A stretch of 64,000 bases of DNA from a virus: IMG/VR virus record IMGVR_UViG_3300045988_155830, positions 1-64,000 of that record, one strand, 5' to 3'. Position 1 is the stretch's first letter, and each line of letters starts with the position of its first letter. The notes beneath the pieces are model-generated. The model saw nothing but the letters and a program-made list of their open reading frames with translations. It did not search any database and was not told the origin of the DNA. Of this stretch, positions 5,491 to 55,655 are shown one piece after another. Made by a program: the position numbers and the translations under genes.

Positions 5491-6135
5491 ATGGGTGTTT
5501 ATGTCTTAACAGATGGGCAAGGAAACTATATCCGAAAAGACAATTTAACAGGAAGATATGTACCTGTCCGAAGTTTTAAACAGGCACAACAATGGGATAG
5601 CCAAGTAAAAGCTCATTCTATTTTGAATAACTCATTAGCAAAGTCAATTAGAAATAATTATGCCGTGCAACTTATTGCCACGGAAAACACTATCGAGAAA
5701 GACGATATGAGTAAACAAAAGGAACTTTGTTTTCGTGCTATTGATGATGGCAACATTGATGATTGGCTTGAAAAGGTTAATACAATTATGAATGTATTAT
5801 CTGGTTCTGATACAAGGAAAGATGAACTCGTAGCCAAGTTAAGTGAAATCGACAAAGAAATTGTTGATATTCAACATTACATAGAATTTGGAAAATTCAA
5901 CTGCTATCAAGGGTGGATGTGTTTCAAAATGTTACAAAATACTTTGCAGCAGAGAAGAAAATATAAAAATGAAATTGCAGTATTAAATTTGATAAAGCAA
6001 TGTAAATTTGATAAATCGTCTCTTGAGGCTCTGTCAGCTACAATAGCAGATATTCAAAATAAATGTTATAGACCAAGAGCATTCCCAGAATTGTTCAGTG
6101 GGAACGAAAGAAATCAGAATGAAAAAGAAAATTAA
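5491..6135 (+). CDS. hypothetical protein
   Basis: ATG 5491 with GGTGG RBS; the track's 5449 start is a TTG lying inside the intergenic motif. Confidence 0.5.
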   Translation: MGVYVLTDGQGNYIRKDNLTGRYVPVRSFKQAQQWDSQVKAHSILNNSLAKSIRNNYAVQLIATENTIEKDDMSKQKELCFRAIDDGNIDDWLEKVNTIMNVLSGSDTRKDELVAKLSEIDKEIVDIQHYIEFGKFNCYQGWMCFKMLQNTLQQRRKYKNEIAVLNLIKQCKFDKSSLEALSATIADIQNKCYRPRAFPELFSGNERNQNEKEN

Positions 6136-10763: not shown

Positions 10764-12176
10764 ATGGATGATTTTCAGACCCTCGTTGATTTTGAAAATC
10801 TCTATAATTCTTACCGAACTTCTATGCGAGGTAAAGGTAAGAAATTGAGTGCGGCGAAGTTCGATGTTATGGCACTTGAAAACCTTTATGTGATGAAGAA
10901 ACAACTCATTAACCATACATATAGGATTTCACCGTATTCAGAGTTTATTGTAACAGAGCCAAAGAAAAGAATAATCAAATCAGGTTCATTTCGAGATAAG
11001 GTATTACAACATTGCTTATGTGATTATGTATTATTGCCAACTATGAAAGACCGTTTTATAAAGGACAATTATGCAGGTCAAATTGGTAAAGGAACATTAT
11101 TCGGACTAAATCGTTTGTCAGAAAATTTACATAATTTTTATGACAAATATGGTAGTGATGGATATATACTAAAATGTGATATAACCAAATTCTTTTATAG
11201 TATCAACCACGATATTATGAAAGAGAAGATAAGAGAAAATTTTTCGGATGAAGATATTCAATGGATTTGTGATAGTTTTATAGATAGTGTTGATGGAGAT
11301 GGGCTACCTCTTGGAAATCAAAGCAGTCAAGTATTTGCCCTGATATTCCTCAACGGACTTGACCATTATATTGTCGATGAGCTTGGATGTAAATATTATG
11401 GCAGATATATGGATGACTTTTATTTACTATCTAATGATAAAGAGTATCTAAAAGAATGTCTTATTAAAATCAAAGAGTATTTAGCTAACTTAAAATTAAC
11501 GCTTAATAACAAGACTGAAATTGTTTCTATGAGTAAAGGTATTAGATTTCTTGGTTTTCATACATATTTGACCGAGCAAGGTAATGTTATAAGAAAACTA
11601 AATGGAGATAACAAAAGACAAGTTAAAAAGCGTTTAAGAAAGTACACAAAGTTAGTAGTACAAGGAAGAATGAAACGAGAAAAGTTCAATGAGATTTACT
11701 GTTCTTGGCGGAATCACGCATCTCACGGTAACTGTTTCAAGTTGATTTATGGAATGGATTTGTTTGTGGAAAATTTATTTAATGAAGAAAAACCTGAAAT
11801 AAGGGTTATTATTGCCGGTAGTAGAGACTTTAATAACTACGAACTATTGGAAAAGCACCTTAATAAATTCGTCAAAGAACACCCTAATAATAAGATAACT
11901 ATTATAAGCGGTGCTGCTCGTGGTGCAGACCAACTCGGAGAAAGATATGCCAGAGAAAAGTGCATATTATTAAAGAGGTTTTCGGCAAATTGGGAACAAT
12001 TCGGTAAAAGGGCAGGTTATATTAGAAACATTCAAATGCTCGACTATATAGATGCATCTACCTGCGATTCATATGTGTTTGCATTTTGGGATGGAAAGAG
12101 TAAAGGAACAAAACAAATGATTGATAGTGCTAAAAAACGAAATATACCGTATCAAATTGTAGCATTTCAATCTTAA
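10764..12176 (+). CDS. DGR reverse transcriptase with an extra C-terminal SLOG/DprA-like domain
   Basis: YMDD motif; PLGNQSSQVFALIFLNGLD matches the DGR-specific [LI]GxxxSQ motif; C-terminal IISGAARGADQLGE resembles the Rossmann-like SLOG/DprA fold. Confidence 0.85.
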   Translation: MDDFQTLVDFENLYNSYRTSMRGKGKKLSAAKFDVMALENLYVMKKQLINHTYRISPYSEFIVTEPKKRIIKSGSFRDKVLQHCLCDYVLLPTMKDRFIKDNYAGQIGKGTLFGLNRLSENLHNFYDKYGSDGYILKCDITKFFYSINHDIMKEKIRENFSDEDIQWICDSFIDSVDGDGLPLGNQSSQVFALIFLNGLDHYIVDELGCKYYGRYMDDFYLLSNDKEYLKECLIKIKEYLANLKLTLNNKTEIVSMSKGIRFLGFHTYLTEQGNVIRKLNGDNKRQVKKRLRKYTKLVVQGRMKREKFNEIYCSWRNHASHGNCFKLIYGMDLFVENLFNEEKPEIRVIIAGSRDFNNYELLEKHLNKFVKEHPNNKITIISGAARGADQLGERYAREKCILLKRFSANWEQFGKRAGYIRNIQMLDYIDASTCDSYVFAFWDGKSKGTKQMIDSAKKRNIPYQIVAFQS

Positions 12177-12669: not shown

Positions 12670-14274
12670 ATGGCATCATTTCTCATTCCTATCGGAATTG
12701 CAATCGCAACAATTATTGTAGTTGTCATATTCTGTTGCTTAATTTATAAAGTTGCAGGTATTGACAAAGCACTCATCGTAACAGGTGGCAAAGAACCTAA
12801 AATTAAGGTATCTGGTGGTTCTTTTGTAATCCCGATTTTCCGAAAGGCTCAATATTTTGACCTTTGTATGTTGACTGTTACGGCAGACAGAGACGAAGTA
12901 AAGACCAAAACATCTGTGCCTATTGTAATTGATTGGACTGCACAGATTAGACCTGACACCGATAATATGGATAATTTGAAGAAAGCAATTATCTCATTCA
13001 AAGAACGAGGTCAAGACGGAATTATAAACGATGTAAAATTGACATTAACGGGTGCGGTTCGTGATATTGTTGCATCAATGACACCGGAAGAAGTTCTTCG
13101 TGACAAAGTTGCTTTTGCCGATAATGTTAAAAAAATTGTTTCTGATGAAATGGTAAATATGGGTATGGAACTTGTATCACTCAACATTCAGGACATTACT
13201 GACAATAACGGCTACTATGACAATATCGCTGCTCTTGATATGGAAGATAAGCGCCGCGAAGCAGAGAACAAAAAGGCGGTTGTTGACCAGGCAGTTCGTA
13301 CACAAAAAGCAGAATCCGAAAAGGTTGCTTCCCAGAATGAACTTGACTCCGAACTTGCTGTTGCTGCTAAACAAAGAGATAACAACTTGAAGATTGCGGA
13401 ATTTAAGGCAGAAACAGATAAGGCAGATGCCGATGCCGCAATCGCAGGTGAATTACAGAGAACGATTAGGCAGCAGGAAATTGCTCAACAGCAAGGTTGT
13501 ATCAAGGTTGTTGAACAAGAACAGGCTAATCTTGCGGCAATGAAAGAAAAAGAAGTAATTGCTACAAGAGCCGAGGCTGAAAAGCAAAAGAGACAAATTG
13601 AAGCAGAAGCCGATGCAAATGTCCGTAAGGTAAGTGCAGATGCTACCGTTGAGGTTGCAGAGAAAGAAGCAAGTGCTACCAAGATTACAGCAGAAGCTAC
13701 CGCAGAGAAAACTCGTAAAGAGGGTATTGCTGTTGCAGATGTTACTAAACAGAAAGGTATTGCAGAAGCAGAGGTTATTCGTCAGAGAGGTCTTGCCGAG
13801 GCGGAAGTTGAGAAACAGAAGTTAATGGCACAGGCAGAAGGCGAAAGAGCATTAGCAGAAGCTCGTGCCTCCAACGAAAAGGTCAACTTTGAGATTGAGA
13901 AGTTGAAGATTGAGAACGAAGCAAAGATTACTATCGCTACAAAGACAGCCGAGATTATGGCTAACATCGGTCAGAACGCAGAGTTCGTAAATATCGGTGG
14001 TGGCAATACTTCCAGCGGAACAGGAAATGTTCTTATCGACACTCTGGCAAGTGTCCCTGCCCTTATGAAGAAGTTGAATACAGAAAATCAGGCACTCAAC
14101 GGACAGTCATTTAATGATGAAATTCGTGGCTTGGTTTCAAGCATTGCCGAGCCTGTAAAGGGTTTACTTGCAACAACTACTAACACAACTGTTAATGGTG
14201 TTAAAGATGAAAATGTAAATTCTGACGGCGTAAAGGTTTTACCCGAAACATCTGTTGAAGATGGAACAGAGTAA
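12670..14274 (+). CDS. flotillin-like SPFH/band-7 membrane protein
   Basis: N-terminal transmembrane helix, an SPFH-like domain (GGSFVIPIFRKAQYFDL), then a long Ala/Glu-rich coiled coil (AEAE repeats) typical of the FloT/YqiK family. Confidence 0.7.
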   Translation: MASFLIPIGIAIATIIVVVIFCCLIYKVAGIDKALIVTGGKEPKIKVSGGSFVIPIFRKAQYFDLCMLTVTADRDEVKTKTSVPIVIDWTAQIRPDTDNMDNLKKAIISFKERGQDGIINDVKLTLTGAVRDIVASMTPEEVLRDKVAFADNVKKIVSDEMVNMGMELVSLNIQDITDNNGYYDNIAALDMEDKRREAENKKAVVDQAVRTQKAESEKVASQNELDSELAVAAKQRDNNLKIAEFKAETDKADADAAIAGELQRTIRQQEIAQQQGCIKVVEQEQANLAAMKEKEVIATRAEAEKQKRQIEAEADANVRKVSADATVEVAEKEASATKITAEATAEKTRKEGIAVADVTKQKGIAEAEVIRQRGLAEAEVEKQKLMAQAEGERALAEARASNEKVNFEIEKLKIENEAKITIATKTAEIMANIGQNAEFVNIGGGNTSSGTGNVLIDTLASVPALMKKLNTENQALNGQSFNDEIRGLVSSIAEPVKGLLATTTNTTVNGVKDENVNSDGVKVLPETSVEDGTE

Positions 14275-15206: not shown

Positions 15207-16553
15207 ATGACAAACACATATATAATTGCAAGAAAAATTCAACTGATACCAGTAGGAAAGAAGGAAGAAGTTAATCGAGTTTATACATATATTAAGGATG
15301 GTATAAAATCACAAAATATGGCAATGAACCAGTATATGAGTGCTTTATATACTTCAACTATTATGGAAATGACAAAAGATGATAGAAAAGAATTAAGCAG
15401 ACTATTTGGTAGAATTAGTACAAGCAAATTAGGAAGTGCTTATGATAAAACAATAGAGTTTGCAAAGGGGCTACCTATGGGTGGTGCAATTCAGCAAAAA
15501 GTCAAAAAAGATTTCGATAATGCAATGAAAAAAGGACTTAAATACGGCAAACTATCTTTACCATCATATCGTGATAGCAATCCTCTTTTGGTACACGTTG
15601 ATTATGTTAGACTTCGTTCTACGAATCCACATTTGGATAACGGCTTATATCACAACTATAGTAGCCACGAAGAATTTTTAAATCACTTATATAACGAAAA
15701 ACTTGAATTGTTTATTAAGTTCGCAAACAAAATTACATTCAAACTTGTTTTAGGCAATCCACGAAAATCAGCAGAAATCAGAAGTGTTTTCAAAAATATT
15801 TTTGAGGATTATTATCACATAAAAGGAAGCTCCATTGAACTTGACGGAACGAAAATTATCTTAAATATGTCGATTGAAATTCCGAAAAAGAAAGTTGTTC
15901 TTGACGAAAATGTTGTTGTTGGCGTGGATTTAGGAATCGCAATTCCTGCCGTATGTGCCTTGAATACCAATGACTATGTAAGAAAAAGCATAGGTTCACG
16001 AGATGATTTTTTGAGAGTAAGAACACAGATTAAATCTCAAAGGGACAGGCTTAAAAGGAAGTTGAAATATACAAGGGGCGGTCACGGCAGAGCGAAGAAA
16101 ATGCAGGCTATGGATAGGTTTACTGATTATGAGAAAAATTGGGTACAAACCTACAACCACAAAGTTAGCAAAGATGTCGTTGATTTTGCGTTGAAAAACA
16201 AGGCTAAATATATAAATCTCGAATGTTTAGACGGTTTCAGTAAGGATGATAAAAAGAAAAATTACTTATTAGCGAACTGGTCTTATTACCAGTTGCAACA
16301 ATACATAAAATACAAAGCCGAAAAATATGGAATTGTGGTTAGATTTGTAAATCCCGCTTATACCTCTCAAACCTGTAACTGTTGTGGTAATTTAGAAGAA
16401 GGACAAAGAGTTAAGCAATCAGAATTTATCTGTAAAAATCCAGAGTGTAAAAATTTTGGGAAGAAAATCAATGCTGATTTCAATGCGGCTCGCAACATCT
16501 CAATGTCAACAGACTTTGTTGAGAAAGAAGAAGAAAAAGAAAGAATTACATAA
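15207..16553 (+). CDS. compact type V effector (TnpB/Cas12f-like RuvC nuclease, 448 aa)
   Basis: RuvC-I VGVDLGIAIPAV; RuvC-II YINLECLDG; zinc finger CNCCGN...CKNPECKNFG; RuvC-III INADFNAARNI; ATG 19 nt after the last repeat with RBS GAAGGAAAG; no tnpA nearby. Confidence 0.75.
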   Translation: MTNTYIIARKIQLIPVGKKEEVNRVYTYIKDGIKSQNMAMNQYMSALYTSTIMEMTKDDRKELSRLFGRISTSKLGSAYDKTIEFAKGLPMGGAIQQKVKKDFDNAMKKGLKYGKLSLPSYRDSNPLLVHVDYVRLRSTNPHLDNGLYHNYSSHEEFLNHLYNEKLELFIKFANKITFKLVLGNPRKSAEIRSVFKNIFEDYYHIKGSSIELDGTKIILNMSIEIPKKKVVLDENVVVGVDLGIAIPAVCALNTNDYVRKSIGSRDDFLRVRTQIKSQRDRLKRKLKYTRGGHGRAKKMQAMDRFTDYEKNWVQTYNHKVSKDVVDFALKNKAKYINLECLDGFSKDDKKKNYLLANWSYYQLQQYIKYKAEKYGIVVRFVNPAYTSQTCNCCGNLEEGQRVKQSEFICKNPECKNFGKKINADFNAARNISMSTDFVEKEEEKERIT

Positions 16554-16727: not shown

Positions 16728-16732
16728 TTGAT

Positions 16733-16904
16733 GGCTGAAAATACTCATCCTTCTAAATCTTTTGCCTGTTAAGCAGGAGGTTGTCGGTTCAAGTCCGGCA
16801 CTGCCCCCGTGGGTAGTTAGCTCAATCGGATAGAGCGCCTACAAGAATAGAGTATAAAATTTCCATCAAATTTCCCTTAACGGCTATATTGAAACTTCCT
16901 TCTA
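16733..16904 (+). repeat. two copies (A and H) of the GGCTG-N8-TCATCCTTCTA motif with tRNA fragments (T-arm gtcggttcaagtccggc, then D-arm gctcaatcggatagagc)
   Basis: Motif A at 16733-16755 and motif H at 16882-16904; between them a T-arm followed by a D-arm without a canonical tRNA fold. Confidence 0.5.
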
Positions 16905-16971
16905 TTAAAGAAATTGGGTTCTAAATAGTTTCAATGATTACCGACAAATTAAAACAAAGGAGATTATTACA

Positions 16972-19218
16972 ATGAAGAATTTCAAATTAACAGAACTTGA
17001 TAAGATTTTGCTACGCCGTAAGCATTCAGTGATGTTTGAACCTGCTAATATGGCTTATGAGCAGAGCAAGACAGAAAAAGCACTCGTTGTTTCCGGCTTG
17101 AAAAATGTTCAGGCTCTTGGATTTACATTTTCAAAGGAACTTATTGAAAAAGCATTTCATTTTACAAGAGATGAGTTTACTGCTTTCTATGGTTTCCTTA
17201 TCCCTGCACTTAAAGAACTTGTTGGTGCGGATGTTGCATATAATCCAATGTACCCGAACTTTCCACAGCAGGTTGCAGAAGCAAGTGACATTGAGTTATT
17301 CATCAATGCAATCGTTCATTACTGGTCATTTGGCACATTGATTCCCGAATACGAAAAAAATGAGCGTTTACCGCTTATTGATGACAATAAAATGGCTCTT
17401 TTATCAGTAGGAAGTCACGATGATTTGATGACTATTTTCACAAATCTTGTTGAGAGCAAGACATCAATCTCGGAGCAGGACAAAGAGGACATTGAAACTA
17501 TCATTCTTGCTTGTCCTGATTATACTACATATTTTTCTGATACAATCCCTCTTAAAGAGAATGTTGCGTTCGTTGGAAAACTCATTATTGAAAAAGCACC
17601 AATCAAAAGCGCCGATTCAATAAGCAAATACTTCAAGACCGCAACGGATGTTTTACGACTTGTAACAGCACTTTCCGATGGCGACATTAGCCTTGCTTCA
17701 AAAACCAAGTACCGAAATCTTCGTAGGGTTGAACGCCGTATGATTATGGACTTGCTTACTGGCTGTGGTAACATAACAGAGGATTTATTCCGTTATCAGT
17801 ATGAATGGATTAGAGTTGCAGAAATTCTTCATCCGTTTGAATATAAAAAATCAAAGTATAGCAATGTCAACGCTGCATTCAATACTTTAAGAAACGAGAA
17901 AAAGCCTCTTATGTTTGCAGGAAAGGTTCAGGCAGCAATTACCGCAAAAGATATGCGTGAAGCTGCCACCTTGTTAAAAGCAAGACCCGGAGAGTTCGCA
18001 AGGAAACTTGACAAACTTATTCGTGATGCAGATAATCCGAATTATATTGTCAACTGTTTTAAGGAAGTTGCAACAGAAATCTCAACTCCTGTACTCCTTC
18101 AGGTAAGACAGCATTTCATAGGAAGAATGGAGAATGATAATCAGCCTGTAAGAGTATTCTTTCCTAAAGGAAACCTTGCAAAAGCTATGGTTATCAGAAA
18201 TGAACTTCCCAAAATCAATAGAAATGTATGTAAAAATGTTGCAAGGATTTGCCGTGAGGCTTTAATTGAACAGTACAAGGAAAAAGATTTTCTCGGAAAG
18301 GTTTATATTGATGAGGATTTCAAAAATTACCTTGTTCCGTTTAGTCAGAGAAGTGCAAGTAAGGCTGTTAAGACCATTGTTCGTGGTAGTAAGTTGCCTA
18401 TTAAGAAAGATGCTACGACTGTTCGTGGTTTTATTTGGTGGACTAATACTGATAACACGAGAAATGGCTGGGGTGAAGATAGGGTTGATATTGACCTTTC
18501 TGCAACCATTTATGATGAAAATTGGCAGTATGTTGACCGTGTATCATACACACAACTTCGCTCTGCAAAATATAGAGCATATCATTCGGGCGATATTACC
18601 AATGGCGGAAATGTTAATGGTGATGGCGTAGCAGAGTTCATTGATGTAGAAATTGATGCAGTTGCTAAAAACGCTGGTAGATACATTGCATTTCAGGTTT
18701 ATAGTTTTACACGACAGCATTTTTCTACGCTTCCTAATTGCCGTTTTGGATGGATGGAAAGAGAAGATGTAAACAGCGGTGAAATATTTGAGCCGAAAAC
18801 GGTTGGAATGAAAATTGACTTAACTGCTGACAGCACTGTTGCTATACCCGTTATATTCGATTGCGTTGAGCGTAAATTCATTTGGTGTGATATGAACCTT
18901 CAGAATGCAAGTTCGAGGTTTTATGGAAATAATCTTGAAAGTAATTTACACGGTGTAACCGCAACTTGCTATGGCTTAACACATCTTAATAAGGCAAATA
19001 TTTATGACCTCATAATGATGAACGCTGTTGCAAGAGGTAGTATTGTCACAGATAGAAATGAAGCAGACATCATTTTCAGTAATGATACAACAGTACCTTA
19101 TGAAATTGTAAATGAGCTTGACGAGGTTACGGGTACTACAAAACCTGTTATAAAGGAGAAGCCAGAAGTTCCGATTATCACGGCTTTCGATACCGATGAA
19201 TTATTTGCCTTGTTATAA
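16972..19218 (+). CDS. large protein (748 aa) with a TerD-like domain
   Basis: Region DIDLSATIYDENWQYVDRVSYTQLRS...YHSGDITNGGNVNGDGVAEFIDVEIDAV..RYIAFQVYSF matches the TerD consensus (HSGDn.tG.g.GDdE.i.vdL...rivf.v.iy); the N-terminal roughly 450 aa are unassigned. Confidence 0.5.
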   Translation: MKNFKLTELDKILLRRKHSVMFEPANMAYEQSKTEKALVVSGLKNVQALGFTFSKELIEKAFHFTRDEFTAFYGFLIPALKELVGADVAYNPMYPNFPQQVAEASDIELFINAIVHYWSFGTLIPEYEKNERLPLIDDNKMALLSVGSHDDLMTIFTNLVESKTSISEQDKEDIETIILACPDYTTYFSDTIPLKENVAFVGKLIIEKAPIKSADSISKYFKTATDVLRLVTALSDGDISLASKTKYRNLRRVERRMIMDLLTGCGNITEDLFRYQYEWIRVAEILHPFEYKKSKYSNVNAAFNTLRNEKKPLMFAGKVQAAITAKDMREAATLLKARPGEFARKLDKLIRDADNPNYIVNCFKEVATEISTPVLLQVRQHFIGRMENDNQPVRVFFPKGNLAKAMVIRNELPKINRNVCKNVARICREALIEQYKEKDFLGKVYIDEDFKNYLVPFSQRSASKAVKTIVRGSKLPIKKDATTVRGFIWWTNTDNTRNGWGEDRVDIDLSATIYDENWQYVDRVSYTQLRSAKYRAYHSGDITNGGNVNGDGVAEFIDVEIDAVAKNAGRYIAFQVYSFTRQHFSTLPNCRFGWMEREDVNSGEIFEPKTVGMKIDLTADSTVAIPVIFDCVERKFIWCDMNLQNASSRFYGNNLESNLHGVTATCYGLTHLNKANIYDLIMMNAVARGSIVTDRNEADIIFSNDTTVPYEIVNELDEVTGTTKPVIKEKPEVPIITAFDTDELFALL

Positions 19219-19292
19219 TTTATGAGGTGAATATTATAGTTAAGGTATGGAACAAACGGAAGGCTATATTAGTGAAATAAAATGAAATTATT

Positions 19293-19995
19293 GTGGCTGT
19301 GGACTTTCTTCCTTCTAAAAGAAAATAATTTCGATGGTTTAGCCATCTACATAATGATGATAAGATAGAAAGTCCGATTTCCACTATTCATAATTTGTGG
19401 CTGTAATGCTCATCCTTCTACATAATATCAAGAACTGCAAATTCTTCTAAAAAGAGTATTAAATTCCCACACCTCTTTCTAAATATTATGTGGCTATTGT
19501 TTTTTCATCCTTCTATGCCAATAGGCACTTGATTTGGGATTAAGATTTTAGAGAAACAAATTTCCACAATACAAAATATGCGGCTGACCAACATCATCCT
19601 TCTATATATCAGGGAACTATGTGTCGTGGGTTCGACTCCCACCATTCCATCTTCGATGGGATGTCGCACAGTTGGTAGTGCAATAGTATTATTAGATGTT
19701 AAAATTACCGCATCAAATAAATTTCAAATAATTAGAAATAATATTGAGAAAAACACTTGACAAATAGTAAAATGTGTGCTATAATATCTAATGTAAGTTA
19801 AATAAACATTCGGCTGTTGAGGTTCATCCTTCTACCTATTAGGAATAGACTTTTAATCTATATATTATAAGAACCTCAAATTTCTGAATATAAGCTGGCT
19901 GAAAGGTTTCATCCTTCTTCAAATACATAATACCAAGCTGCTAATCGTGGGTTCGATTCCCACCTATCTACATTGCTGGTAGTCGCCAAGAGGTA
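19293..19995 (+). repeat. array of about 90-110-nt degenerate tRNA-like units, each beginning with the conserved motif GGCTG-N8-(T)CATCCTTCTA (copies B-G)
   Basis: Motif copies at 19295-19317, 19399-19420, 19492-19515, 19582-19604, 19812-19834 and 19897-19919; units E and G contain a perfect T-arm (gtgggttcgactcccac / gtgggttcgattcccac) followed by a D-arm (gcacagttggtagtgc / gccaagaggtaaggc); unit F contains a Lys-type anticodon arm (atagacttttaatctat); none folds as a complete tRNA. Confidence 0.55.
19757..19785 (+). promoter_or_regulatory. sigma-70-type promoter TTGACA-17-TATAAT inside the tRNA-like array, preceded by the conserved intergenic motif
   Basis: TTGACA at 19757-19762 and TATAAT at 19780-19785. 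Confidence 0.55.
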
Positions 19996-20226
19996 AGGCA
20001 GCAGCCCTAAAATCAAAGAGACCGAAATTTCCAGCATCAAGAAACATTATTGAGCAAAACAAAATACGATAACTACAAAACCTAATCAGAATTTTTCACC
20101 TCTTTCTCTCCTTTCTATGTTTTTGCGTGTTTCATAAGATAAATTAAGAGTATTTTTTTTGTCTGATTAAAACCTGTTTAACAGGGGGCAAAGTTAGATA
20201 GATAAAGGTCTTTGCCATATACATAT

Positions 20227-22103: not shown

Positions 22104-22197
22104 GGTTCATTGGTCAAGCGGTTAAGACACTGGCGGAGGTATGTAGTGTAAATCAGGCACACTGCCGGAGACATAGGTTCAAATCCTATATGAGCCA
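22104..22197 (+). tRNA. aberrant tRNA-like gene (94 nt) with an approximately 29-nt insertion or 9-nt loop in the anticodon region; no CCA
   Basis: Acceptor ggttcat/atgagcc; D-arm gtcaagcggttaagac; T-arm ataggttcaaatcctat; the region between D- and T-arms is 44 nt with nested stems ctggc/gccgg and agtgt/acact. Confidence 0.4.
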
Positions 22198-22705: not shown

Positions 22706-23515
22706 ATGAAATATGATGCATTTGATAAAAGAATGAAAAAGTATGAATTTGTGTCGAGACACTATTTGACAACTCGTACTCCTGTTATTATCCGAATTGA
22801 CGGTAAAACGTTTCATACATTCACAAGAGGTTTTCAAAGACCTTTCGATGATGTACTTTCTAAAACTATGCAGGAGACAATGAAATATCTTTGTGAAAAT
22901 ATTCAAGGTTGTGTTCTTGGATATACACAATCAGATGAGATTACTCTTGTCCTTGTTGATTACAAGAATATAGATACTTCTGCTTGGTTTGATTACAATA
23001 TCCAAAAGTGTGCGAGTGTTGCAGCAAGTATGGCAACAATGGCTTTTAATAAATTTTTCAATAACAGAGCCAATAATTATATAAATTCAGTTTTAGAACT
23101 CCAAGATACAGATATTCCATCCGAATTAGAATATATTAAGATACTTAAAAGAGCAATAGATAAAGGTGCAATGTTTGATGCTCGTGTATTCAATATTCCA
23201 AAAGATGAGGCTTGCAATAATTTACTTTGGAGACAGAATGATGCCACAAGGAACTCAATTCAGATGGTTGGCAGAGCATCTTTCTCTCACAAGCAATTAA
23301 ATAAAAAATCCACAAGCAATATTCAGGATATGCTTATGCTTGAAAAAGGCGTAAACTGGAATGATTATCCTACAAAATATAAGAGAGGTAGCTGTTGTAT
23401 TCGTAAGACTGATGAGACAACAGGTAGAAGTAAATGGATTATTGATAATGAAATTCCTATCTTTAAGGGAGATGGTCGAAAGTATGTCAATGATTTAATA
23501 TATGTGGGCGAGTAA
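22706..23515 (+). CDS. Thg1-like protein (tRNA-His guanylyltransferase family 3'-5' polymerase)
   Basis: VIIRIDGKTFHTFT and VLGYTQSDEITLVLV match the Thg1/TLP signatures (RIDGRxFHxF; GQSDEYSF); RBS GAGGATG upstream. Confidence 0.75.
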   Translation: MKYDAFDKRMKKYEFVSRHYLTTRTPVIIRIDGKTFHTFTRGFQRPFDDVLSKTMQETMKYLCENIQGCVLGYTQSDEITLVLVDYKNIDTSAWFDYNIQKCASVAASMATMAFNKFFNNRANNYINSVLELQDTDIPSELEYIKILKRAIDKGAMFDARVFNIPKDEACNNLLWRQNDATRNSIQMVGRASFSHKQLNKKSTSNIQDMLMLEKGVNWNDYPTKYKRGSCCIRKTDETTGRSKWIIDNEIPIFKGDGRKYVNDLIYVGE

Positions 23516-23516
23516 T

Positions 23517-23714
23517 ATGAGCTATCGCAGAAGTCAGGAAAGAAATCGTAGACTTAAAAACTTTATAATGAAACTAAGAATTTATATGGTGCTGGTGCTT
23601 GGTATGACGAGGAAAAAGGAAGATATACAAAATATTCTTGCGGTGGCAGGAAATATAAAAAGTATCTTAAAAAAATATCAAGCAAGAAAGCACGCAAATA
23701 TAAAGGGGATATGA
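23517..23714 (+). CDS. hypothetical basic protein
   Basis: ORF from the track trimmed to its first in-frame ATG; weak support. Confidence 0.3.
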   Translation: MSYRRSQERNRRLKNFIMKLRIYMVLVLGMTRKKEDIQNILAVAGNIKSILKKYQARKHANIKGI

Positions 23715-23738
23715 GACATTGCGATTACAAGAGAACAT

Positions 23739-24626
23739 TTGATTATTGGTGGGAGTTATTTTAATGAGAAGATTATTCATAAAATGAATATTTATACTAC
23801 ATATTTTGCAAATATTCGCCATTTGCCAAAAAGTATTATACCAGTTTCAATAGCTGGAAAACCGCCCGAAAAATGGGATGGAATTGAGTATAAGAAATTA
23901 GCACCTAAATGGAGTTTCTTTTCCGAGTGGAAAAAAACTAAAAATAACGATTATTATATTGAACATTTTTATGATGAAGTATTAAGTAGTCTTACTCCAC
24001 AAAATGCAATTGATGAACTAAATAAAATTAGTTCTAATAATGATAACAAAGATATTGCCCTTGTGTGTTACGAAATTCCAAGAGATTTTTGCCACAGACA
24101 TATTGTTTCCGGTTGGTTAAATCGTAATGGGGGATATTGTGTAAAAGAATATATTGATATGAATTCTATAAAAGATACAGATGACGGAATTACACATATC
24201 AATATTTATAGTAAAGGCAAAACTGATTTAGGAAAAATGTTAAGTAACTTTTATAAGTTTCCTATACATACAGATGACGGTGATTTTCTATCAGTTGAGG
24301 GATATTGGTATTGGTTATCTATTGATGATTCGGTGAGAGAAAGAGAAGAATTACGTTATTTATATGGATTTAATGCTAAAAGCAGAGGTAAAGAAATCTT
24401 AAAAGAAACAAATGATGGTAAAAGTAGTAGATTTGAGCCTGACTTTGAAAATAAGATTCTAAAAGCTATTTGGTATAAATTAAGAAGAAATGCAAATCTA
24501 TTAACACCTGAATATCGGAGATTACCAATAGTTCATTATTATTGTTATGGTGGAAAGGTTGTTGATGTTACAAGTAAATATCAATGGTTAATAGACGGAA
24601 TTACTAAAATGAGAGATTACTTATAA
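23739..24626 (+). CDS. hypothetical protein (295 aa)
   Basis: Long ORF; start uncertain. Confidence 0.45.
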   Translation: MIIGGSYFNEKIIHKMNIYTTYFANIRHLPKSIIPVSIAGKPPEKWDGIEYKKLAPKWSFFSEWKKTKNNDYYIEHFYDEVLSSLTPQNAIDELNKISSNNDNKDIALVCYEIPRDFCHRHIVSGWLNRNGGYCVKEYIDMNSIKDTDDGITHINIYSKGKTDLGKMLSNFYKFPIHTDDGDFLSVEGYWYWLSIDDSVREREELRYLYGFNAKSRGKEILKETNDGKSSRFEPDFENKILKAIWYKLRRNANLLTPEYRRLPIVHYYCYGGKVVDVTSKYQWLIDGITKMRDYL

Positions 24627-24671
24627 ATCATTATTAAATGACAGTTTTATTATTAAAAAGGAGATTAAATT

Positions 24672-25358
24672 ATGTCATATACAAAGAGAACAGAAAACAA
24701 TGTTTCAAATGAGAAATTTGTAGAAATTAAATGTAATATTGCATCAGCAAAAAATGTCAATAATTCAACTTTTACAATAGGTAGCTATGATTTTGATACG
24801 GCATTGATGCATCCTTCAAGCATACACTTTGGTAAAGTTCAAGATGGTGCAAAAACTTATATTGATAAGAATTACAGCAAAGGTATTCGTATTATTTATA
24901 ACGGTCTGTGGGGAATGGGTACTGCAACTAATGTAATTATTCCTCACATCAAAGATGTTCAGGTTATCAAAGATAGAGTTGTCATTGTAAGTTTTGCTGA
25001 TGACTCGCAAGAAAAAGCTGTGCTTGATAGTGCTGATACTTTCTCTTTGGAGCAGGGCATTTCGATTTGCATTACAAAGAAAATGCTTTCAATGGAGACA
25101 AACGGAAACGGAAGTTCGGCATATAACAAACTTATTAACCATTGCTTGAAAGTGTATGAGAACAGCCGAAAGACAGAAGAAAAAGCAAAAGCAGAAGAAC
25201 AGACTGCAAAAGAAAAGGAAAAGAAAGCAGCAGATAAGGCAAGAGCAAAGAGAATTAAGAAAGCCAACAAGAATCGTGAAAGAGAGATTGAAATTCAAAA
25301 AGAAGCATATCTCCGTGCAATGAGAGAATTCGGCGGCAATTCTGCTGTTAATGACTAA
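24672..25358 (+). CDS. hypothetical protein with a Lys/Glu-rich C-terminus
   Basis: RBS AAGGAG; 228-aa ORF. Confidence 0.5.
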   Translation: MSYTKRTENNVSNEKFVEIKCNIASAKNVNNSTFTIGSYDFDTALMHPSSIHFGKVQDGAKTYIDKNYSKGIRIIYNGLWGMGTATNVIIPHIKDVQVIKDRVVIVSFADDSQEKAVLDSADTFSLEQGISICITKKMLSMETNGNGSSAYNKLINHCLKVYENSRKTEEKAKAEEQTAKEKEKKAADKARAKRIKKANKNREREIEIQKEAYLRAMREFGGNSAVND

Positions 25359-25415
25359 TTAAGCATAGGGAGTGTGAAATATCACTCCCTTTAATTTATG
25401 AGGTAATAGCAAAGA

Positions 25416-26186
25416 ATGATTTATATAACAGGCGATACTCACGCAAATTTCAATAGATTTTCTACCAAGAATTTTCCTGAACAAAAGGAAATGACTAAAG
25501 ATGATTATATGATAATTTGTGGTGATTTTGGTGGAATTTGGAATTATCTTTATTCCGACAAAACAGAAACATATTGGTTAAAATGGCTTGAAGATAAACC
25601 ATTTACGATATTATTTGTTGATGGAAACCACGAGAATTTTGATAGATTGAGTAAAGAATTTAAGGTTGTTAATTATCACGGCGGTAAAGCTCATAGAATA
25701 CGCAGCAATATCTATCATCTTATGAGAGGTTATGTATTTGAATTTGAAGGCAAGAAATTCTTTACTTTTGGCGGAGCAAGTAGTCACGATATTCAAGACG
25801 GTATATTAAAAATTGAAGATTATTCAACATTGAGTGATTTGGTTAAGGATTATAATAAAAGAACCAGAGCAGGGCAAATGTTGAGAATTGACCACATATC
25901 TTGGTGGGAAAAGGAACTTCCATCATACTATGAAATGCAGAGAGGCAGACGGGAATTAGAAAAGGTAAATTATGAAGTCGATTATGTAATTACTCATTGT
26001 GCTCCTCAAGATATTGCTTCATATATTTCTCACGGATATTACAAACCTGATATTTTAACAATGTATCTTGGTGAAATAGCTCGTGAACTTAAATTTACCA
26101 AGTGGTATTTTGGTCATTATCATAATGAACAAGCCATTATGGATAAATTTATTCTTCACTATGATAAGATTGAGAGGATTATTTAA
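25416..26186 (+). CDS. metallophosphoesterase (calcineurin-like phosphatase superfamily)
   Basis: GDTHAN, GDFGG, GNHEN and GHYH motifs in the canonical order. Confidence 0.75.
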   Translation: MIYITGDTHANFNRFSTKNFPEQKEMTKDDYMIICGDFGGIWNYLYSDKTETYWLKWLEDKPFTILFVDGNHENFDRLSKEFKVVNYHGGKAHRIRSNIYHLMRGYVFEFEGKKFFTFGGASSHDIQDGILKIEDYSTLSDLVKDYNKRTRAGQMLRIDHISWWEKELPSYYEMQRGRRELEKVNYEVDYVITHCAPQDIASYISHGYYKPDILTMYLGEIARELKFTKWYFGHYHNEQAIMDKFILHYDKIERII

Positions 26187-26259
26187 TATGAAAAAGATTA
26201 TGTCAATGGGTTTAGTTATTACAATGACTTGTTTATGCTTTGGAGGAAATATATACTAA

Positions 26260-26625
26260 ATGACCGACATTGATTTTTATGTTCAATTTAGATTAGAGAT
26301 TGAACGAATGTATGCTCCTTATGTTCTAAATGAGTGTGAAACTATAAGAATTGAAGATGAAAAAACAAAAATAGGCATATTGCTTATCAAGGATAAATAT
26401 ATTGTAGGTCTGTATATTTTACCTGAATATAGACGGAAAGGCTATGGAAGAAAAGCAATTTTAGATTATGTATCAAAATATGGTATGTTAAAGGACTTAA
26501 CTATATTAAACTCAAACGAAACCGCCAAGTCTTTTTGGAATAACTTATTTGAGTTAGAAGTAATTAAAGAAAATTCCATAGATACCTATTATTCAATAAA
26601 ATCATTAAAATATAAAGAGGTATAA
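26260..26625 (+). CDS. GNAT-family N-acetyltransferase
   Basis: LYILPEYRRKGYGRKAIL matches the acetyl-CoA-binding motif (R/Q-x-x-G-x-G/A). Confidence 0.55.
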   Translation: MTDIDFYVQFRLEIERMYAPYVLNECETIRIEDEKTKIGILLIKDKYIVGLYILPEYRRKGYGRKAILDYVSKYGMLKDLTILNSNETAKSFWNNLFELEVIKENSIDTYYSIKSLKYKEV

Positions 26626-26627
26626 AA

Positions 26628-26792
26628 ATGAAAGTATTTTATCATTCAGACAATGATGTTGAATATAGAGTTAATGGGATAGAAACCTATAATAAATATA
26701 AAGGCCGAGTAGGTGAAACTGTAAACGCTACTATTGAAAAGAATAGTTATGATGATGGAACAGTTAAATATTCGGTTACTGCGTTGGAGTAA
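26628..26792 (+). CDS. 54-aa ORF whose first 10 codons duplicate the start of the DHH phosphoesterase gene (likely a gene remnant)
   Basis: 31-nt repeat atgaaagtattttatcattcaga(c/t)aatgatg at 26628 and 27098. Confidence 0.3.
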   Translation: MKVFYHSDNDVEYRVNGIETYNKYKGRVGETVNATIEKNSYDDGTVKYSVTALE

Positions 26793-26797
26793 CTAAT

Positions 26798-27088
26798 ATG
26801 AAAATTGCAAGGGCAGCTATTAAGTTTTTTGAATTAAATAACCCGAATAAAGAAAGAATTTATTTTGGTTGGAATCACGCAGAAATTTTTCAAAATATGA
26901 AAAATGATGGAATTATATATGATAGAACAAATTATGAAATGGGTTTCATAACCAACGAAAGACCAATTCATTTTGTTAATAGAACAGAAGCGGCTAAAAT
27001 TGCTTTTGAATCAGGACAGACCAAAGAATTACATAATGAATTGTTTTCCGAAGATTTTTGGAAAAACGGTCAATTTGATTATAGTTAG
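26798..27088 (+). CDS. hypothetical protein (96 aa)
   Basis: ORF with a start overlapping the upstream stop. Confidence 0.45.
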   Translation: MKIARAAIKFFELNNPNKERIYFGWNHAEIFQNMKNDGIIYDRTNYEMGFITNERPIHFVNRTEAAKIAFESGQTKELHNELFSEDFWKNGQFDYS

Positions 27089-27097
27089 GAGTGTTTT

Positions 27098-27979
27098 ATG
27101 AAAGTATTTTATCATTCAGATAATGATGGTAAATGTGCTGGTTATTGGGTAAAAACCTTAAATAAATTAACTGACAACTTTACCGATGAATATATCAAAA
27201 TAAATTATGGGATAGAATTCCCATTTGACTCTATTGGAAAGAATGAAATTGTATATATTGTAGATTATTCTATTTCTCCGGAAGAAATGGATAAGTTACT
27301 TGAAATTACGAGTAATGTCATTTGGATTGACCATCATAAATCAGCAATTGAAAAATATAAGAATTATGATAAAGATGTTAAAGGGTTAAGGTATGACGGG
27401 ATTGCTGGTTGTATGCTTACTTATTGTTATCTTTTTTTTCTTACTGATGGAGTTAAAGAATTTGAACCTGAAATGGTAGAGTCTGCTCCTTTATTTACAA
27501 AGTTAATTGCAGATTATGATGTTTGGACTTTTGAGTTTGGAGATAAGACAAGAAGATTTCAAAAAGGCTTTGAATTATATCCACACGAACCAGAGGATAA
27601 AATCTGGGATAATTTATGGAGCAATATATTCTGTGAATCAGATGAAATGAATCGGATTATAGAAGCAGGGAAGATAATTATTGAATATAGAAAATGTATG
27701 ATGGCAGAGTATTGTGAAAATAAGGGATTTGAAGCAAGTCTTGAAGATTATAAATGTTTTGCTATCAATATGGCTATGGTTAGTAGTGATGATTTTGTCA
27801 TTGATAATATAAACGATTATGATATTCTAATTGGATTCTCATATGATGGAGATAATTGGAATTATTCATTGCGTTCCACAAAGGTTGACTGTGCGGTGCT
27901 TGCTATGAAATATGGTGGTGGCGGTCATAAGGGTGCAGCAGGATTTAGTAGCCCCGACTTTGTGTTAAGAAAATTGTAA
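27098..27979 (+). CDS. DHH/DHHA1-family phosphoesterase (NrnA/RecJ-like)
   Basis: Motif I HSDNDG, motif III WIDHHKS, and DHHA1 GGGGHKGAAGF. Confidence 0.7.
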   Translation: MKVFYHSDNDGKCAGYWVKTLNKLTDNFTDEYIKINYGIEFPFDSIGKNEIVYIVDYSISPEEMDKLLEITSNVIWIDHHKSAIEKYKNYDKDVKGLRYDGIAGCMLTYCYLFFLTDGVKEFEPEMVESAPLFTKLIADYDVWTFEFGDKTRRFQKGFELYPHEPEDKIWDNLWSNIFCESDEMNRIIEAGKIIIEYRKCMMAEYCENKGFEASLEDYKCFAINMAMVSSDDFVIDNINDYDILIGFSYDGDNWNYSLRSTKVDCAVLAMKYGGGGHKGAAGFSSPDFVLRKL

Positions 27980-55448: not shown

Positions 55449-55655
55449 ATGTTTAAATGTAAAAATTGTGGAACTGAAATGGAGAGAGTTTATTCTTTTG
55501 AAAATGAGAATGAAAGTTATCAGCAGATGAAGTGTCCTAACTGTGGCGGTGCTACAAAAAAGAGACCTATCGTGTATGACGATAACGGCAATCTCGTAAC
55601 CAATTTCAAGAAGAACAATAAAAAGAAAAAGCAGAGAAAGGCTAAAGAAGAATGA
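55449..55655 (+). CDS. hypothetical zinc-ribbon protein
   Basis: CKNCG...CPNCGG. Confidence 0.45.
   Translation: MFKCKNCGTEMERVYSFENENESYQQMKCPNCGGATKKRPIVYDDNGNLVTNFKKNNKKKKQRKAKEE

Follow-up and report, generated by a model that had tools for sequence, protein, structure and literature searches.

The unit array and its protein gene

The window (the whole 64-kb stretch analyzed, positions 1 to 64,000 of IMG/VR record IMGVR_UViG_3300045988_155830) contained eight short units, A to H, on the + strand. Within the unit array lay an ORF of 748 amino acids (aa; 16972..19218, + strand), which is the proposed protein partner of the RNAs. Each unit began with a copy of one motif, at 16733, 16882, 19295, 19399, 19492, 19582, 19812, and 19897, exactly where an earlier sequence-only reading of this DNA had placed them; in that reading A was also A, B had no letter, and units C, D, E, F, G, and H were B, C, D, E, F, and G, respectively. 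The core TCCTTCT occurred eight times on the + strand of the window, every time within one of the eight units, and three times on the - strand at sites unrelated to the units.

The motif had been written with a spacer of eight nucleotides. The spacer is N7 (5+7+11 = 23 nt), and the rigid N8 pattern fit just one real unit. A search of IMG/VR with GGCTG-N8-TCATCCTTCTA returned six loci (L001-L006), which were discarded as chance matches because they were single copies inside ORFs without the closing helix. The string aaatttcc(ac), said to lie 15-25 nt upstream of following copies, was present but belongs to the unit before, whose 3' end it forms; the bases 5' of aaatttcc pair with the 'N7' of the motif, forming the closing helix. 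Unit sizes in the window ranged from about 64 to 138 nt, and the last unit (H) reached 20034, beyond the end of 19995 given previously.

The scaffold common to the units consisted of a GG/CC clamp, an asymmetric CUR/AUUU internal loop, a covarying helix (H1) of free sequence, UCCUUCU, and a variable insert. The helix was 6-10 bp long, usually 8-10 bp, and was topped by the invariant single-stranded UCCUUCU. The same closing helix appeared in the predicted folds of 8/8 units. A covariance model (R1) based on 104 seed sequences, mostly from other genomes and with unit B among the seeds, recovered units B, C, E, G, and D in the window at E 9e-13 to 2e-3 and unit A at E 0.4. The R1 search of both strands of the window found nothing beyond units A, B, C, D, E, and G.

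Unit A (16733..16866, + strand; 134 nt) started 5 nt after a tRNA-Lys gene. Its scaffold comprised GG at 16733-4, H1 pairing 16741-46 with 16850-55, UCCUUCU at 16748-54, and AUUUCC at 16859-64. The insert contained a 10-bp stem with an Asn-type loop CUGUUAA (16756-82; loop 16766-72), a T-arm (16783-99), a capped acceptor hairpin (16800-17), and a D-arm (16819-36). Rfam YrlA matched the full length of this unit at 36.2 bits (E 1.4e-6, for the short stretch searched), and R1 scored 13.5 bits. Unit B (16882..16945, + strand; 64 nt; R1 59.9 bits, E 8.7e-13) was of the minimal bacterial type, with H1 pairing 16887-96 with 16927-36, UCCUUCU at 16897-903, and AUUACC at 16937-42. The 26 nt between its end and the ORF start contained the Shine-Dalgarno sequence AAAGGAG.

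Unit C (19295..19384, + strand; 90 nt; R1 43 bits, E 1.6e-8) had H1 at 19300-09 with 19367-76, UCCUUCU at 19310-16, AUUUCC at 19377-82, and an insert hairpin GAUGG/CCAUC at 19333-47. Unit D (19399..19470, + strand; 72 nt; R1 22.7 bits, E 0.002) had H1 at 19404-11 with 19454-61, UCCUUCU at 19413-19, and AUUCCC at 19463-68; its insert was a 5-bp stem with a Cys-type anticodon-like loop CUGCAAA (19430-46; loop 19435-41). In unit E (19492..19567, + strand; 76 nt; R1 36.5 bits, E 6.9e-7) H1 paired 19497-506 with 19551-59 around one bulged U, followed by UCCUUCU at 19508-14 and AUUUCC at 19560-65. The unit E insert formed two small hairpins (19516-27 and 19528-44), and its sequence was found again in locus L011.

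Unit F (19582..19711, + strand; 130 nt; Rfam YrlA 32.5 bits) was further characterized by an RNAalifold consensus with compensatory changes. H1 paired 19590-95 with 19695-700, UCCUUCU lay at 19597-603, and AUUACC at 19704-09. Its YrlA-type insert contained an anticodon-stem analogue ACUAU/AUAGU (19616-20 with 19683-87), a T-arm (19626-42), a capped acceptor (19643-63), and a D-arm (19666-81). Unit G (19812..19887, + strand; 76 nt; R1 33 bits, E 5.2e-6) had H1 at 19817-25 with 19871-79, UCCUUCU at 19827-33, AUUUCU at 19880-85, and a 5-bp insert stem with a tRNA-Lys(UUU)-type loop CUUUUAA (19845-61; loop 19850-56). Unit H (19897..20034, + strand; 138 nt; Rfam YrlA 21.8 bits, RNAalifold) had H1 at 19905-10 with 20018-23, UCCUUCU at 19912-18, and AUUUCC at 20027-32. 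Its YrlA-type insert comprised the stem GCUGC/GCAGC (19937-41 with 20001-05), a T-arm (19947-63), a capped acceptor (19964-82), and a D-arm (19985-99).

A sigma-70-type promoter (19757..19785, + strand; TTGACA, 17 nt, TG-TATAAT) was located 27 nt upstream of unit G, with a 12/12 consensus match and an extended -10. Reading by eye, an equivalent promoter sequence was seen before the last units of loci L007 and L011. The array is embedded in a cluster of tRNA genes; a Thg1-like gene lies close by, and an RNA ligase is encoded at another site in the window. A TnpB gene adjoins the array, and an integrase is encoded in the window; TnpB is missing from most related loci.

Covariation of the scaffold helix

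Among 153 unique scaffolds there were 125 different helix 7-mers. These paired with their own partner at 6.87/7 positions and with the partners of other units at 3.19/7. The scaffold set was gathered by a scan that demanded part of the helix, so the pairing percentages for pairs 6-12 are inflated; pairs 13 and 14, outside the scan requirement, were 100% canonical. Across the 104 sequences 96.6% of cells were paired vs. 64% in shuffles (0/500 shuffles were as high), and 38-53% were paired when the partners were slid. The covariation score for the 104 sequences was 0.853 vs. 0.186. The covariation check proposed by the sequence-only reading thus came out strongly positive for the scaffold helix, in the 153 scaffolds and in the 104-sequence alignment.

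Pairing of the conserved CUA with the 3' UAG was ruled out because column 62 covaried with C18 and not with the invariant C25. Rfam 15 contained no family matching the scaffold at E <= 10 in the window, nor at E <= 1 in six bacterial loci. Hammerhead, HDV-like, and other ribozymes, group I intron halves, and TnpB omega-RNA were each considered and had no Rfam match; TnpB was moreover missing from most relatives.

tRNA-like inserts

The units had been described as tRNA-derived pseudo-units. That description fails, as the conserved core is a hairpin scaffold that occurs in bacteria without any tRNA parts; the tRNA pieces are therefore inserts. The T-arm, capped acceptor, D-arm order was found in units A, F, and H and in none of B, C, D, E, and G. 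T- and D-arms, attributed before to several units, were thus present in 3/8 only (16733, 19582, and 19897), while the other five have short hairpins. The statement that no intact acceptor or anticodon arm lay between the two arms was incorrect: a closed 7-bp acceptor-like hairpin lies between the T-arm and the D-arm, and unit A carries the 10-bp stem with its Asn-type loop. Its insert is a complete circularly permuted tRNA look-alike, and the same insert was kept in locus L022. The closing helix, the capped acceptor hairpin, and the Ro60-like/TerD gene inside the array had all been overlooked.

Anticodon-loop mimics were displayed by units A (Asn), D (Cys), and G (Lys). In total, anticodon-like loops occurred in 17/143 inserts vs. 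a mean of 0.5 in shuffles. RNAalifold on 22 related units found compensatory changes in 20/26 pairs of the tRNA-like insert. The view that conservation is higher in the 5' motif than in the tRNA parts, and that the units are functional rather than decaying, was borne out, as the scaffold covaries and the inserts keep their arms by compensation.

ARAGORN and the Rfam tRNA model called no tRNA in any unit, in line with the expectation that none folds as a complete tRNA. ARAGORN identified 10 tRNAs in the window, none within units, and the Rfam tRNA model gave just a 15.5-bit partial match on unit A. The suggested comparison with YrlA and Y RNAs yielded matches on exactly units A, F, and H, all of them sub-threshold: no unit reached the Rfam YrlA (RF02553) gathering score of 69 bits (A 36.2, F 32.5, and H 21.8). 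The Rfam YrlA search gave no match in units B, C, D, E, and G. The Rfam permuted-tmRNA match to the units was negligible (18 bits).

Distribution across phages and bacteria

All 245 units found by the structure scan were on the gene strand, with 0 on the opposite one. With the covariance model, 333 matches were found in the 80 phage loci searched, and all 300 among the matches listed were on the gene strand. This search of other phages, which the sequence-only reading had called for, found motif units to be present. In bacteria there were 152 matches in 79/80 loci, all on the gene strand. Cultured phage XacN1 contained three units (E about 1e-5) and cultured phage Weasels2 contained one (17.5 bits, E 0.0099). 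At the DNA level, similarity to cultured phages was limited to tRNA-to-tRNA matches.

Bacteria had one to few minimal units of 53-60 nt in which the insert was a short loop; phages had arrays of up to 9 units with tRNA-like inserts. Adjacency of the units to the gene for the Ro60-like-fold protein (which has no sequence-level TROVE match) was near-universal, and units were found beside this one gene from phages to Cyanobacteria and Acidobacteria. Units lay upstream or downstream of the protein gene, as Y RNAs do. Most bacterial units were upstream of the gene on the same strand, and in L099-L101, L103, L163, and L167 all detected units were downstream. A unit at the unit B position was seen in every inspected orthologous locus, and unit copy number differed among relatives. 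Shared neighbor genes were sought as a functional clue in eight bacterial loci, and none were conserved.

The Ro60-like/TerD protein

The 748-aa protein consisted of a Ro60/TROVE-like helical domain (~8-436), a TerD domain (~470-645), and a C-terminal part. The helical domain was a HEAT-repeat domain with the Ro60 fold, and three Ro60 structures were its best matches. Foldseek against BFVD matched a TROVE protein (E 1.8e-4) and Foldseek against the PDB gave no significant match. Many Arg residues of the helical domain were invariant or nearly so. Pfam TROVE did not match the window protein at E <= 1 or any of 52 relatives at E <= 0.1, and a PDB sequence search with the protein returned no Ro60; sequence searches of PDB, Pfam, and a PADLOC-type library did not identify the helical domain. 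The predicted relationship to Ro60 is seen at the fold level only.

No vWA domain with a MIDAS site was found in the protein, and a TerD beta-sandwich stands in its place. This beta-sandwich fold carries conserved acidic motifs that are probably Ca2+-binding. Pfam TerD matched 13/52 relatives, and invariant acidic residues aligned with the TerD motifs DxDxS, HSGD, and E..D, which we take to be Ca2+-binding sites. The family comprised 2,837 clusters at 50% identity in many phyla, including cultivable hosts, e.g., Priestia megaterium and Paenibacillus, and phages, e.g., XacN1. A limited full-text literature search found no description of a TROVE-TerD protein or its RNA.

Discussion

The eight units are probably genes for small non-coding RNAs that serve as dedicated partners of the Ro60-like/TerD protein, forming a ribonucleoprotein on the Ro60/Y-RNA plan. 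The anatomy of the units, their covariation, their strict linkage to one gene, and the fold of the encoded protein are shown here, and together the RNAs and protein look like an undescribed relative of the Ro60/Y-RNA particle. The units would be transcribed and processed, and the protein would bind the RNAs directly.

Both bacteria and phages are known to encode Ro60 next to tRNA-like Y RNAs (PMC4201824, PMC12135203). Examples are bacterial Ro60 (Rsr) and its Y RNAs of the YrlA type (Rfam RF02553; Chen et al., 2014, PMC4201824) and Thermus phage phiLo, which has Ro60 with Yrl1/2 (PMC12135203). The Ro60-binding stem of Y RNAs has a conserved GNCGAAN0-1G / CGAA motif (PMC4201824, PMC12135203). 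The canonical Ro-binding GNCGAA motif was found in 0/8 window units and in 1/278 unique units; in place of a GNCGAA/'CGAA' bulged helix, the units have the GG/CC clamp, the CUR/AUUU loop, and the invariant UCCUUCU. As in Ro60/YrlA systems, one or several small RNAs lie right beside the protein gene on the same strand, and as in Y RNAs the units are modular, combining a variable module with a terminal stem that contains an internal loop. Units A, F, and H also share the YrlA order of T-arm, capped acceptor-like hairpin, and D-arm, with a stem in the anticodon-stem place, but their Rfam scores are below threshold and most units have no tRNA-like domain. Unlike Y RNAs, some units display anticodon stem-loops, of which we know no reported case on Y RNAs, and the arrays reach 9 units. 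The protein resembles Ro60 in having a helical domain plus a cation-binding domain, but differs in having no sequence-level TROVE match and in carrying the TerD beta-sandwich instead of vWA/MIDAS.

Classical TerD proteins stand alone, are ~190 aa long, and are encoded in ter operons of the tellurite-resistance stress/phage-resistance system; we know of no RNA partner for them. The invariant acidic residues of the window protein align with the motifs of these Ter-system proteins (PDB 2qz7, 2kxt), but here TerD is one domain of a ~700-aa protein that also has a Ro60-like domain. The flanking ORFs examined in eight bacterial loci and the window ORFs scanned included no ter genes.

Alternatively, the units could be cis-regulatory leader or trailer elements of the protein's own mRNA instead of free-standing partner RNAs, with translation autoregulated by binding of the protein to the hairpin or by pairing of UCCUUCU with the Shine-Dalgarno sequence. 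Unit B ends 26 nt before the ATG, an upstream unit is likewise present in the examined orthologous phage loci, bacterial units are mostly upstream on the same strand, and UCCUU is able to pair with AAGGA of the gene's Shine-Dalgarno. We nevertheless consider this explanation unlikely for the array: several bacteria have all detected units downstream (the loci listed above), phages have up to 9 units, most of them downstream and two behind their own consensus promoter, and the selected tRNA-like inserts would be needless for a translational operator. Unit B, just upstream of the ORF, could equally be a cis-regulator, and could be one in addition to acting as a partner RNA. It is quite unlikely that the units are mimics of the 16S rRNA 3' tail (anti-Shine-Dalgarno), pairing with purine-rich Shine-Dalgarno-like sequences or acting as a decoy for a factor or nuclease that recognizes the 16S 3' end, with the neighboring protein a chaperone or unrelated. 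The resemblance noted earlier is real, since CUUCCUUCUA matches CCUCCUUUCUA, presumably the Firmicute 16S 3' end, at 9/11 positions with one gap; the octamer is single-stranded in every fold, and more 16S-tail-like strings occur at 19470-19481 and 20097-20117. The resemblance is imperfect, however, as the motif has UU in the place of UC in the anti-Shine-Dalgarno core CCUCC; both of these core-breaking U's are invariant in 152-153/153 scaffolds, collected by a scan that allowed no more than one octamer mismatch. The motif is also conserved equally in phyla with little Shine-Dalgarno use, e.g., Saprospiraceae, and such strict linkage to a single protein gene favors a role for the octamer as a protein contact.

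It is very improbable that the tRNA-like units are unconventional tRNA genes, circularly permuted or split, whose products are cut at the capped acceptor to yield working tRNAs or tRNA halves. In favor of this reading, unit A holds the four arms, all present but permuted, the acceptor hairpins are 7 bp long, and M. smegmatis YrlA is cleaved by RNase P and receives CCA (PMC4201824). This reading leaves the scaffold and the protein linkage unexplained, 5/8 units have no T- or D-arm, bacterial units have no tRNA parts at all, units F and H lack an anticodon loop, the tRNA finders call none of the units, and the phage already encodes a normal tRNA-Lys among the 10 normal tRNA genes in the window. 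Circularly permuted tRNA genes occur in the red alga Cyanidioschyzon merolae, and two-piece tmRNA is likewise permuted. As in those genes, the DNA order of the tRNA-like part places its 3' half, made of the T-arm and the acceptor 3' strand, before its 5' half, made of the acceptor 5' strand and the D-arm; unlike them, the acceptor is closed by a 3-9-nt loop and has no CCA, no splicing motif is apparent, and the scaffold helix locks the unit ends. The location in a tRNA cluster beside a TnpB gene, the integrase in the window, and the variable copy number among relatives might raise the suspicion that the units are tRNA pseudogenes in decay, or a selfish or recombination repeat (MITE-/REP-like or an att site), with no function at the RNA level. 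This reading is scarcely credible and is already contradicted by the covariation and linkage data: orientation is strictly single-stranded with essentially no units on the opposite strand, every helix shows compensatory changes, the units are conserved next to a single gene in phages and as far afield as Cyanobacteria and Acidobacteria, and most related loci lack TnpB.

In the preferred reading of partner RNAs in a Ro60-like particle, each RNA would have two modules: the constant scaffold as the putative protein-binding site and the variable apical insert as the effector module. The bacterial insert is a short loop, and the inserts of this phage lineage appear to imitate tRNA parts, namely an elbow of T-arm, capped acceptor, and D-arm as in YrlA (A, F, and H) and Asn, Cys, and Lys anticodon stem-loops (A, D, and G). 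Y RNAs tether Ro60 to other proteins, and by analogy only, the inserts may act as tethers or decoys that recruit or distract tRNA-recognizing proteins. Targets could be tRNA repair or modification enzymes, or host tRNA-cleaving defense nucleases, and the insert modules might benefit the tRNA supply of the phage during infection. Host defenses that target tRNA are countered by phage-encoded tRNAs and tRNA variants. Like these, the units lie within a phage tRNA cluster with tRNA-repair-type genes and display specific anticodon loops, e.g., Lys UUU; unlike these, they consist of tRNA fragments grafted onto a putative protein-binding scaffold and cannot decode. Any protective role would therefore be that of a decoy or tether and not of a replacement tRNA.

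Ro60, a major autoantigen, and its Y RNAs form particles whose conservation extends from bacteria to humans. To our knowledge, the purpose of their RNAs is largely unsettled and the YrlA tRNA-like domain has no established partner. The present finding points to a second, far more widespread branch of the Ro60/Y-RNA design, with a different RNA-recognition code and a TerD domain instead of vWA. A large family of 'TerD family / hypothetical' proteins would thereby gain a function, and RNA databases a family that they lack. The phage arrays amount to a natural experiment in which one scaffold carries interchangeable tRNA elbows and anticodon loops; this interchange suggests which cellular machinery the particle addresses, and the arrays make the role of tRNA-mimicking Y-like RNAs directly testable. 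A bolder proposal, possible though doubtful, is an unrecognized RNP class of bacteria and phages, composed of a Ro60-like/TerD protein and a 'UCCUUCU-hairpin' RNA, in which large phages would have made the apical loop a swappable display of tRNA parts. The parts displayed, among them entire elbows and particular anticodon loops (Lys, Cys, Asn, Ser, Phe, Tyr, and others), would serve as decoys or tethers against host defense nucleases that target tRNA, or would recruit tRNA repair enzymes; if true, such display would be a new RNA-based counter-defense principle.

Organization of the units in the window

The eight motif copies, lettered A to H in order, lie on the plus strand at 16733, 16882, 19295, 19399, 19492, 19582, 19812 and 19897, as a sequence-only reading had placed them (its unit A is A here, its B to G are C to H, and it left the copy at 16882 unlettered). 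The core heptamer TCCTTCT was found eight times on the plus strand of the 64-kb window, each time at a unit site. Several details of that reading were revised. The motif spacer is N7; a rigid N8 pattern, as proposed earlier, retrieves a single real copy. The 'variable' bases 3' of GGCTR are complementary to the bases immediately preceding each AAATTTCC, and because of this complementarity the aaatttcc string, formerly taken as a leader of the following copy, is the 3' end of the preceding unit. The last unit reaches 20034, beyond the 19995 first assigned to the end of the array.

All units share the order 5' GG, CUR, H1, (C)[A/U]UCCUUCU[A/U], insert, H1', AUUUCC. H1 and H1' are the strands of the helix closing the constant scaffold; H1 is 6–10 nt long and unconstrained in sequence. 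The terminal GG of each unit pairs with the CC of AUUUCC, forming a clamp. Inter-unit spacers were 14–21 nt in the downstream array, the A–B gap was 15 nt, and 5 nt separated tRNA-Lys from the start of unit A. A perfect sigma-70-type promoter (19757–19785) stands ahead of units G and H, and inspection of the array for promoters and terminators found no convincing terminator between units. From these two features we infer that the units are co-transcribed and then processed in the manner of a tRNA operon. A second, orphan AAATTTCCC occupies 16868–16876 in the gap separating units A and B. It could represent either an additional 3' terminus of unit A or the relic of a lost unit; locus L007, from a related phage, has a similar AATTTTCC.

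Linkage and covariation across genomes

Loci encoding related proteins were fetched from phages (86 loci, 35–96% identity) and bacteria (80 loci, among them Paenibacillus, Brevibacillus, Priestia, Niallia, Chloroflexi, Cyanobacteria, Acidobacteria, Armatimonadota, Saprospiraceae and others). A structure-aware scan of the window and the phage loci returned 245 units, every one of them on the gene strand. Scaffolds were gathered by a scan requiring partial pairing. The 153 unique scaffolds contained 125 distinct H1 7-mers, which matched their own partners at 6.87 of 7 positions versus 3.19 of 7 for non-self partners. Pairs 13 and 14, not demanded by the scan, were 100% canonical and included all six pair types. 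Covariation, suggested earlier as a check on the units, was evident in a 104-sequence alignment, where paired cells amounted to 96.6% versus 64% when shuffled and 38–53% when slid (covariation score 0.853 versus 0.186).

A covariance model built from this alignment, with E-values that are rough, gave 333 matches in 80 IMG/VR phage loci and 152 matches in 79 of the 80 bacterial loci. All matches listed, phage and bacterial, were on the gene strand. The 80th bacterial locus carried a long-insert unit found by the structure-aware scan. Genes around the bacterial loci were unrelated apart from the gene for the shared protein and the units. No Rfam 15 family matched the scaffold.

Bacterial units were minimal (53–60 nt); their loop, about 25 nt in length, begins with UCCUUCUA and finishes near UAG. 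They lay upstream of the gene in most bacteria and only downstream in several. Among cultured phages, Xanthomonas phage XacN1 (locus L174, AP018399.1) encodes a protein 24% identical to that of the window, and three unannotated units (2472–2845) occupy an 'empty' 500-nt gap just upstream of its ORF396. As a cultured jumbo phage with units, XacN1 is a ready experimental system. Rhodococcus phage Weasels2 had one weaker unit (17.5 bits), downstream of the gene.

Inserts and tRNA mimicry

In units A, F and H the insert includes a T-arm, a D-arm and, between them, an acceptor-like hairpin of 7 bp that is capped, the same topology as the tRNA-like domain of YrlA, of the Rfam Y RNA family. When the YrlA model was applied, as had been suggested, it matched exactly these three units (36.2, 32.5 and 21.8 bits), but no match reached the gathering score of 69. 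None of the units was called as a tRNA by ARAGORN, which placed ten ordinary tRNAs elsewhere in the window. Unit A has in addition a CUGUUAA (Asn-type) loop on a stem of 10 bp preceding the T-arm, and thus contains all four tRNA arms, circularly permuted. On 5-bp stems, the unit D insert carries a CUGCAAA (Cys-type) loop and the unit G insert a CUUUUAA (Lys-type) loop; units B, C and E have other short hairpins.

Phage inserts ranged from 10 to 100 nt. About one-fifth of phage units had the full tRNA elbow (T-arm, acceptor-like hairpin and D-arm), some had a T-arm only, and many had short hairpins. Covariation extended to the elbows: RNAalifold on 22 elbow-bearing units independently yielded the clamp, H1, T-arm, acceptor hairpin and D-arm, with compensatory changes in 20 of 26 pairs. 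The elbow inserts are structures under selection, not decay. Among the 143 inserts without a T-arm, 17 had hairpins with a CU-NNN-A[A/C] loop (shuffle mean 0.5; none of 500 shuffles attained 17), and the triplets in these anticodon-like loops were GCA, UUU, UGA, GAA, CAU, GUA, GGU and CAA.

Inserts are exchanged quickly, since L007, which encodes a protein of 85% identity, has as its orthologue of unit A a minimal unit (5845–5900) of about 56 nt, with no counterpart of the 88-nt permuted-tRNA insert that unit A (16733–16866) carries in the window. Gain or loss of that insert is recent. A unit of locus L086 (2047–2171) holds a tRNA-like insert in normal order (acceptor 5' strand, D-arm, stem, T-arm, acceptor 3' strand), with a tetraloop capping the stem at the place of the anticodon loop. 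The scaffold thus takes tRNA mimics of either topology.

The protein encoded within the array

A 748-aa ORF (16972–19218, plus strand) lies within the array, between units B and C. It had no Pfam match and matched NCBIfam NF041916 (below cutoff) and phrog_33734; some sources label close relatives 'TerD family protein'. Its structural matches were TerD (2qz7, 16.0; 2kxt, 13.7), Xenopus Ro60 with RNA (1yvp, 9.8, 313 residues aligned), Thermus phage Ro60 (9l5y, 9.2) and Deinococcus Rsr (2nvo, 9.1), followed by a short alignment at 7.0. Foldseek against viral models returned cultured-phage relatives of full length, as well as a TROVE-annotated protein at E 1.8e-4. From these structural matches, the protein is predicted to have a helical domain like that of Ro60 and, in the place where Ro60 has its vWA, a TerD domain. 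Likeness to Ro60 is limited to the fold level: among 52 relatives, sequence searches found TerD in 13 and TROVE in none.

The family comprises 2,837 clusters at 50% identity. In the family alignment, some bacterial members have additional N-terminal domains (prokaryotic RING finger, ankyrin repeats), and the NCBIfam name 'RING domain-containing' agrees with the extra RING finger. These domains hint that in some lineages the protein may have a ubiquitin-like role or one in protein interaction.

Genomic neighborhood

The array sits in a tRNA cluster. ARAGORN placed a tRNA-Pro(AGG) at 22104–22197 (plus strand) that, at 94 nt, is unusually long for a Pro tRNA; a long variable arm may account for its length, or the call may be wrong. 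A plus-strand run of tRNA/RNA-end-repair-type genes (22706–27979; in L011, 11876–13393) includes Thg1-like (22706–23515), DUF488 (23739–24626), metallophosphatase (25416–26186) and DHH (27098–27979) genes, to which relatives add peptidyl-tRNA hydrolase PTH2. An 1119-aa RNA ligase ORF (55652–59011, plus strand) is split by intein splicing domains and a LAGLIDADG homing endonuclease.

On the other side, also on the plus strand, a gene for a reverse transcriptase with a fused YAcAr/SLOG domain (10764–12176) precedes the Ro60-like/TerD gene by a few kb, as it does in relatives of 73–74% identity (L009, 3273–4595; L011, 1967–3394). It could be a defense or counter-defense retroelement, or a functional partner of the RNA array. 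Between it and the tRNA cluster lies a 534-aa SPFH/Band-7 protein (12670–14274, plus strand). A TnpB/Cas12f-like gene (OrfB_IS605 and TNB domain; 15207–16553, plus strand) ends 16 nt before tRNA-His, and the region where its omega-RNA is expected would extend over the first part of the tRNA/unit cluster. This gene was absent from the fetched flanks of the 73–74%-identity relatives; L007 and L008 have one TnpB/Cas12f-like gene each, at another place.

Interpretation of the units

A purely cis-regulatory role, in which the units would serve the adjacent gene, is contradicted by their lying only downstream in several bacteria, by their occurrence in arrays and by the separate promoter, although unit B may double as an operator. 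Mimicry of the 16S 3' tail draws on the tail-like pyrimidine strings CACCTCTTTCTA (19470–19481, in the D–E spacer) and CACCTCTTTCTCTCCTTTCTA (20097–20117, 3' of unit H), which are closer to the 16S rRNA 3' end than the unit motif is; for the units themselves the idea is weakened by an invariant UU that breaks CCUCC and by their linkage to the protein gene. The capped acceptors, the lack of tRNA parts in bacterial units, the bias to one strand and the covariation are at odds with readings of the units as unconventional tRNA genes, pseudogenes or selfish repeats.

The best-supported reading is that units and protein make up a particle of the Ro60/Y-RNA type in a new guise, with the constant scaffold as the putative binding site for the Ro60-like/TerD protein and the insert as a putative effector module. 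In the window phage these modules imitate tRNA parts. The units depart from canonical Y RNAs on three counts, namely score, the GNCGAA motif (present in 1 of 278 units) and sequence-level protein identity, and are therefore classified as Y-RNA-like in the way they work rather than as YrlA members. The position of the array in a tRNA cluster, with Thg1-like, DUF488, phosphoesterase and intein-split RNA ligase genes in the window and PTH2 in relatives, suggests that the particle deals with tRNA-recognizing proteins, which would be enzymes of repair and modification or else host defenses that cleave tRNA.
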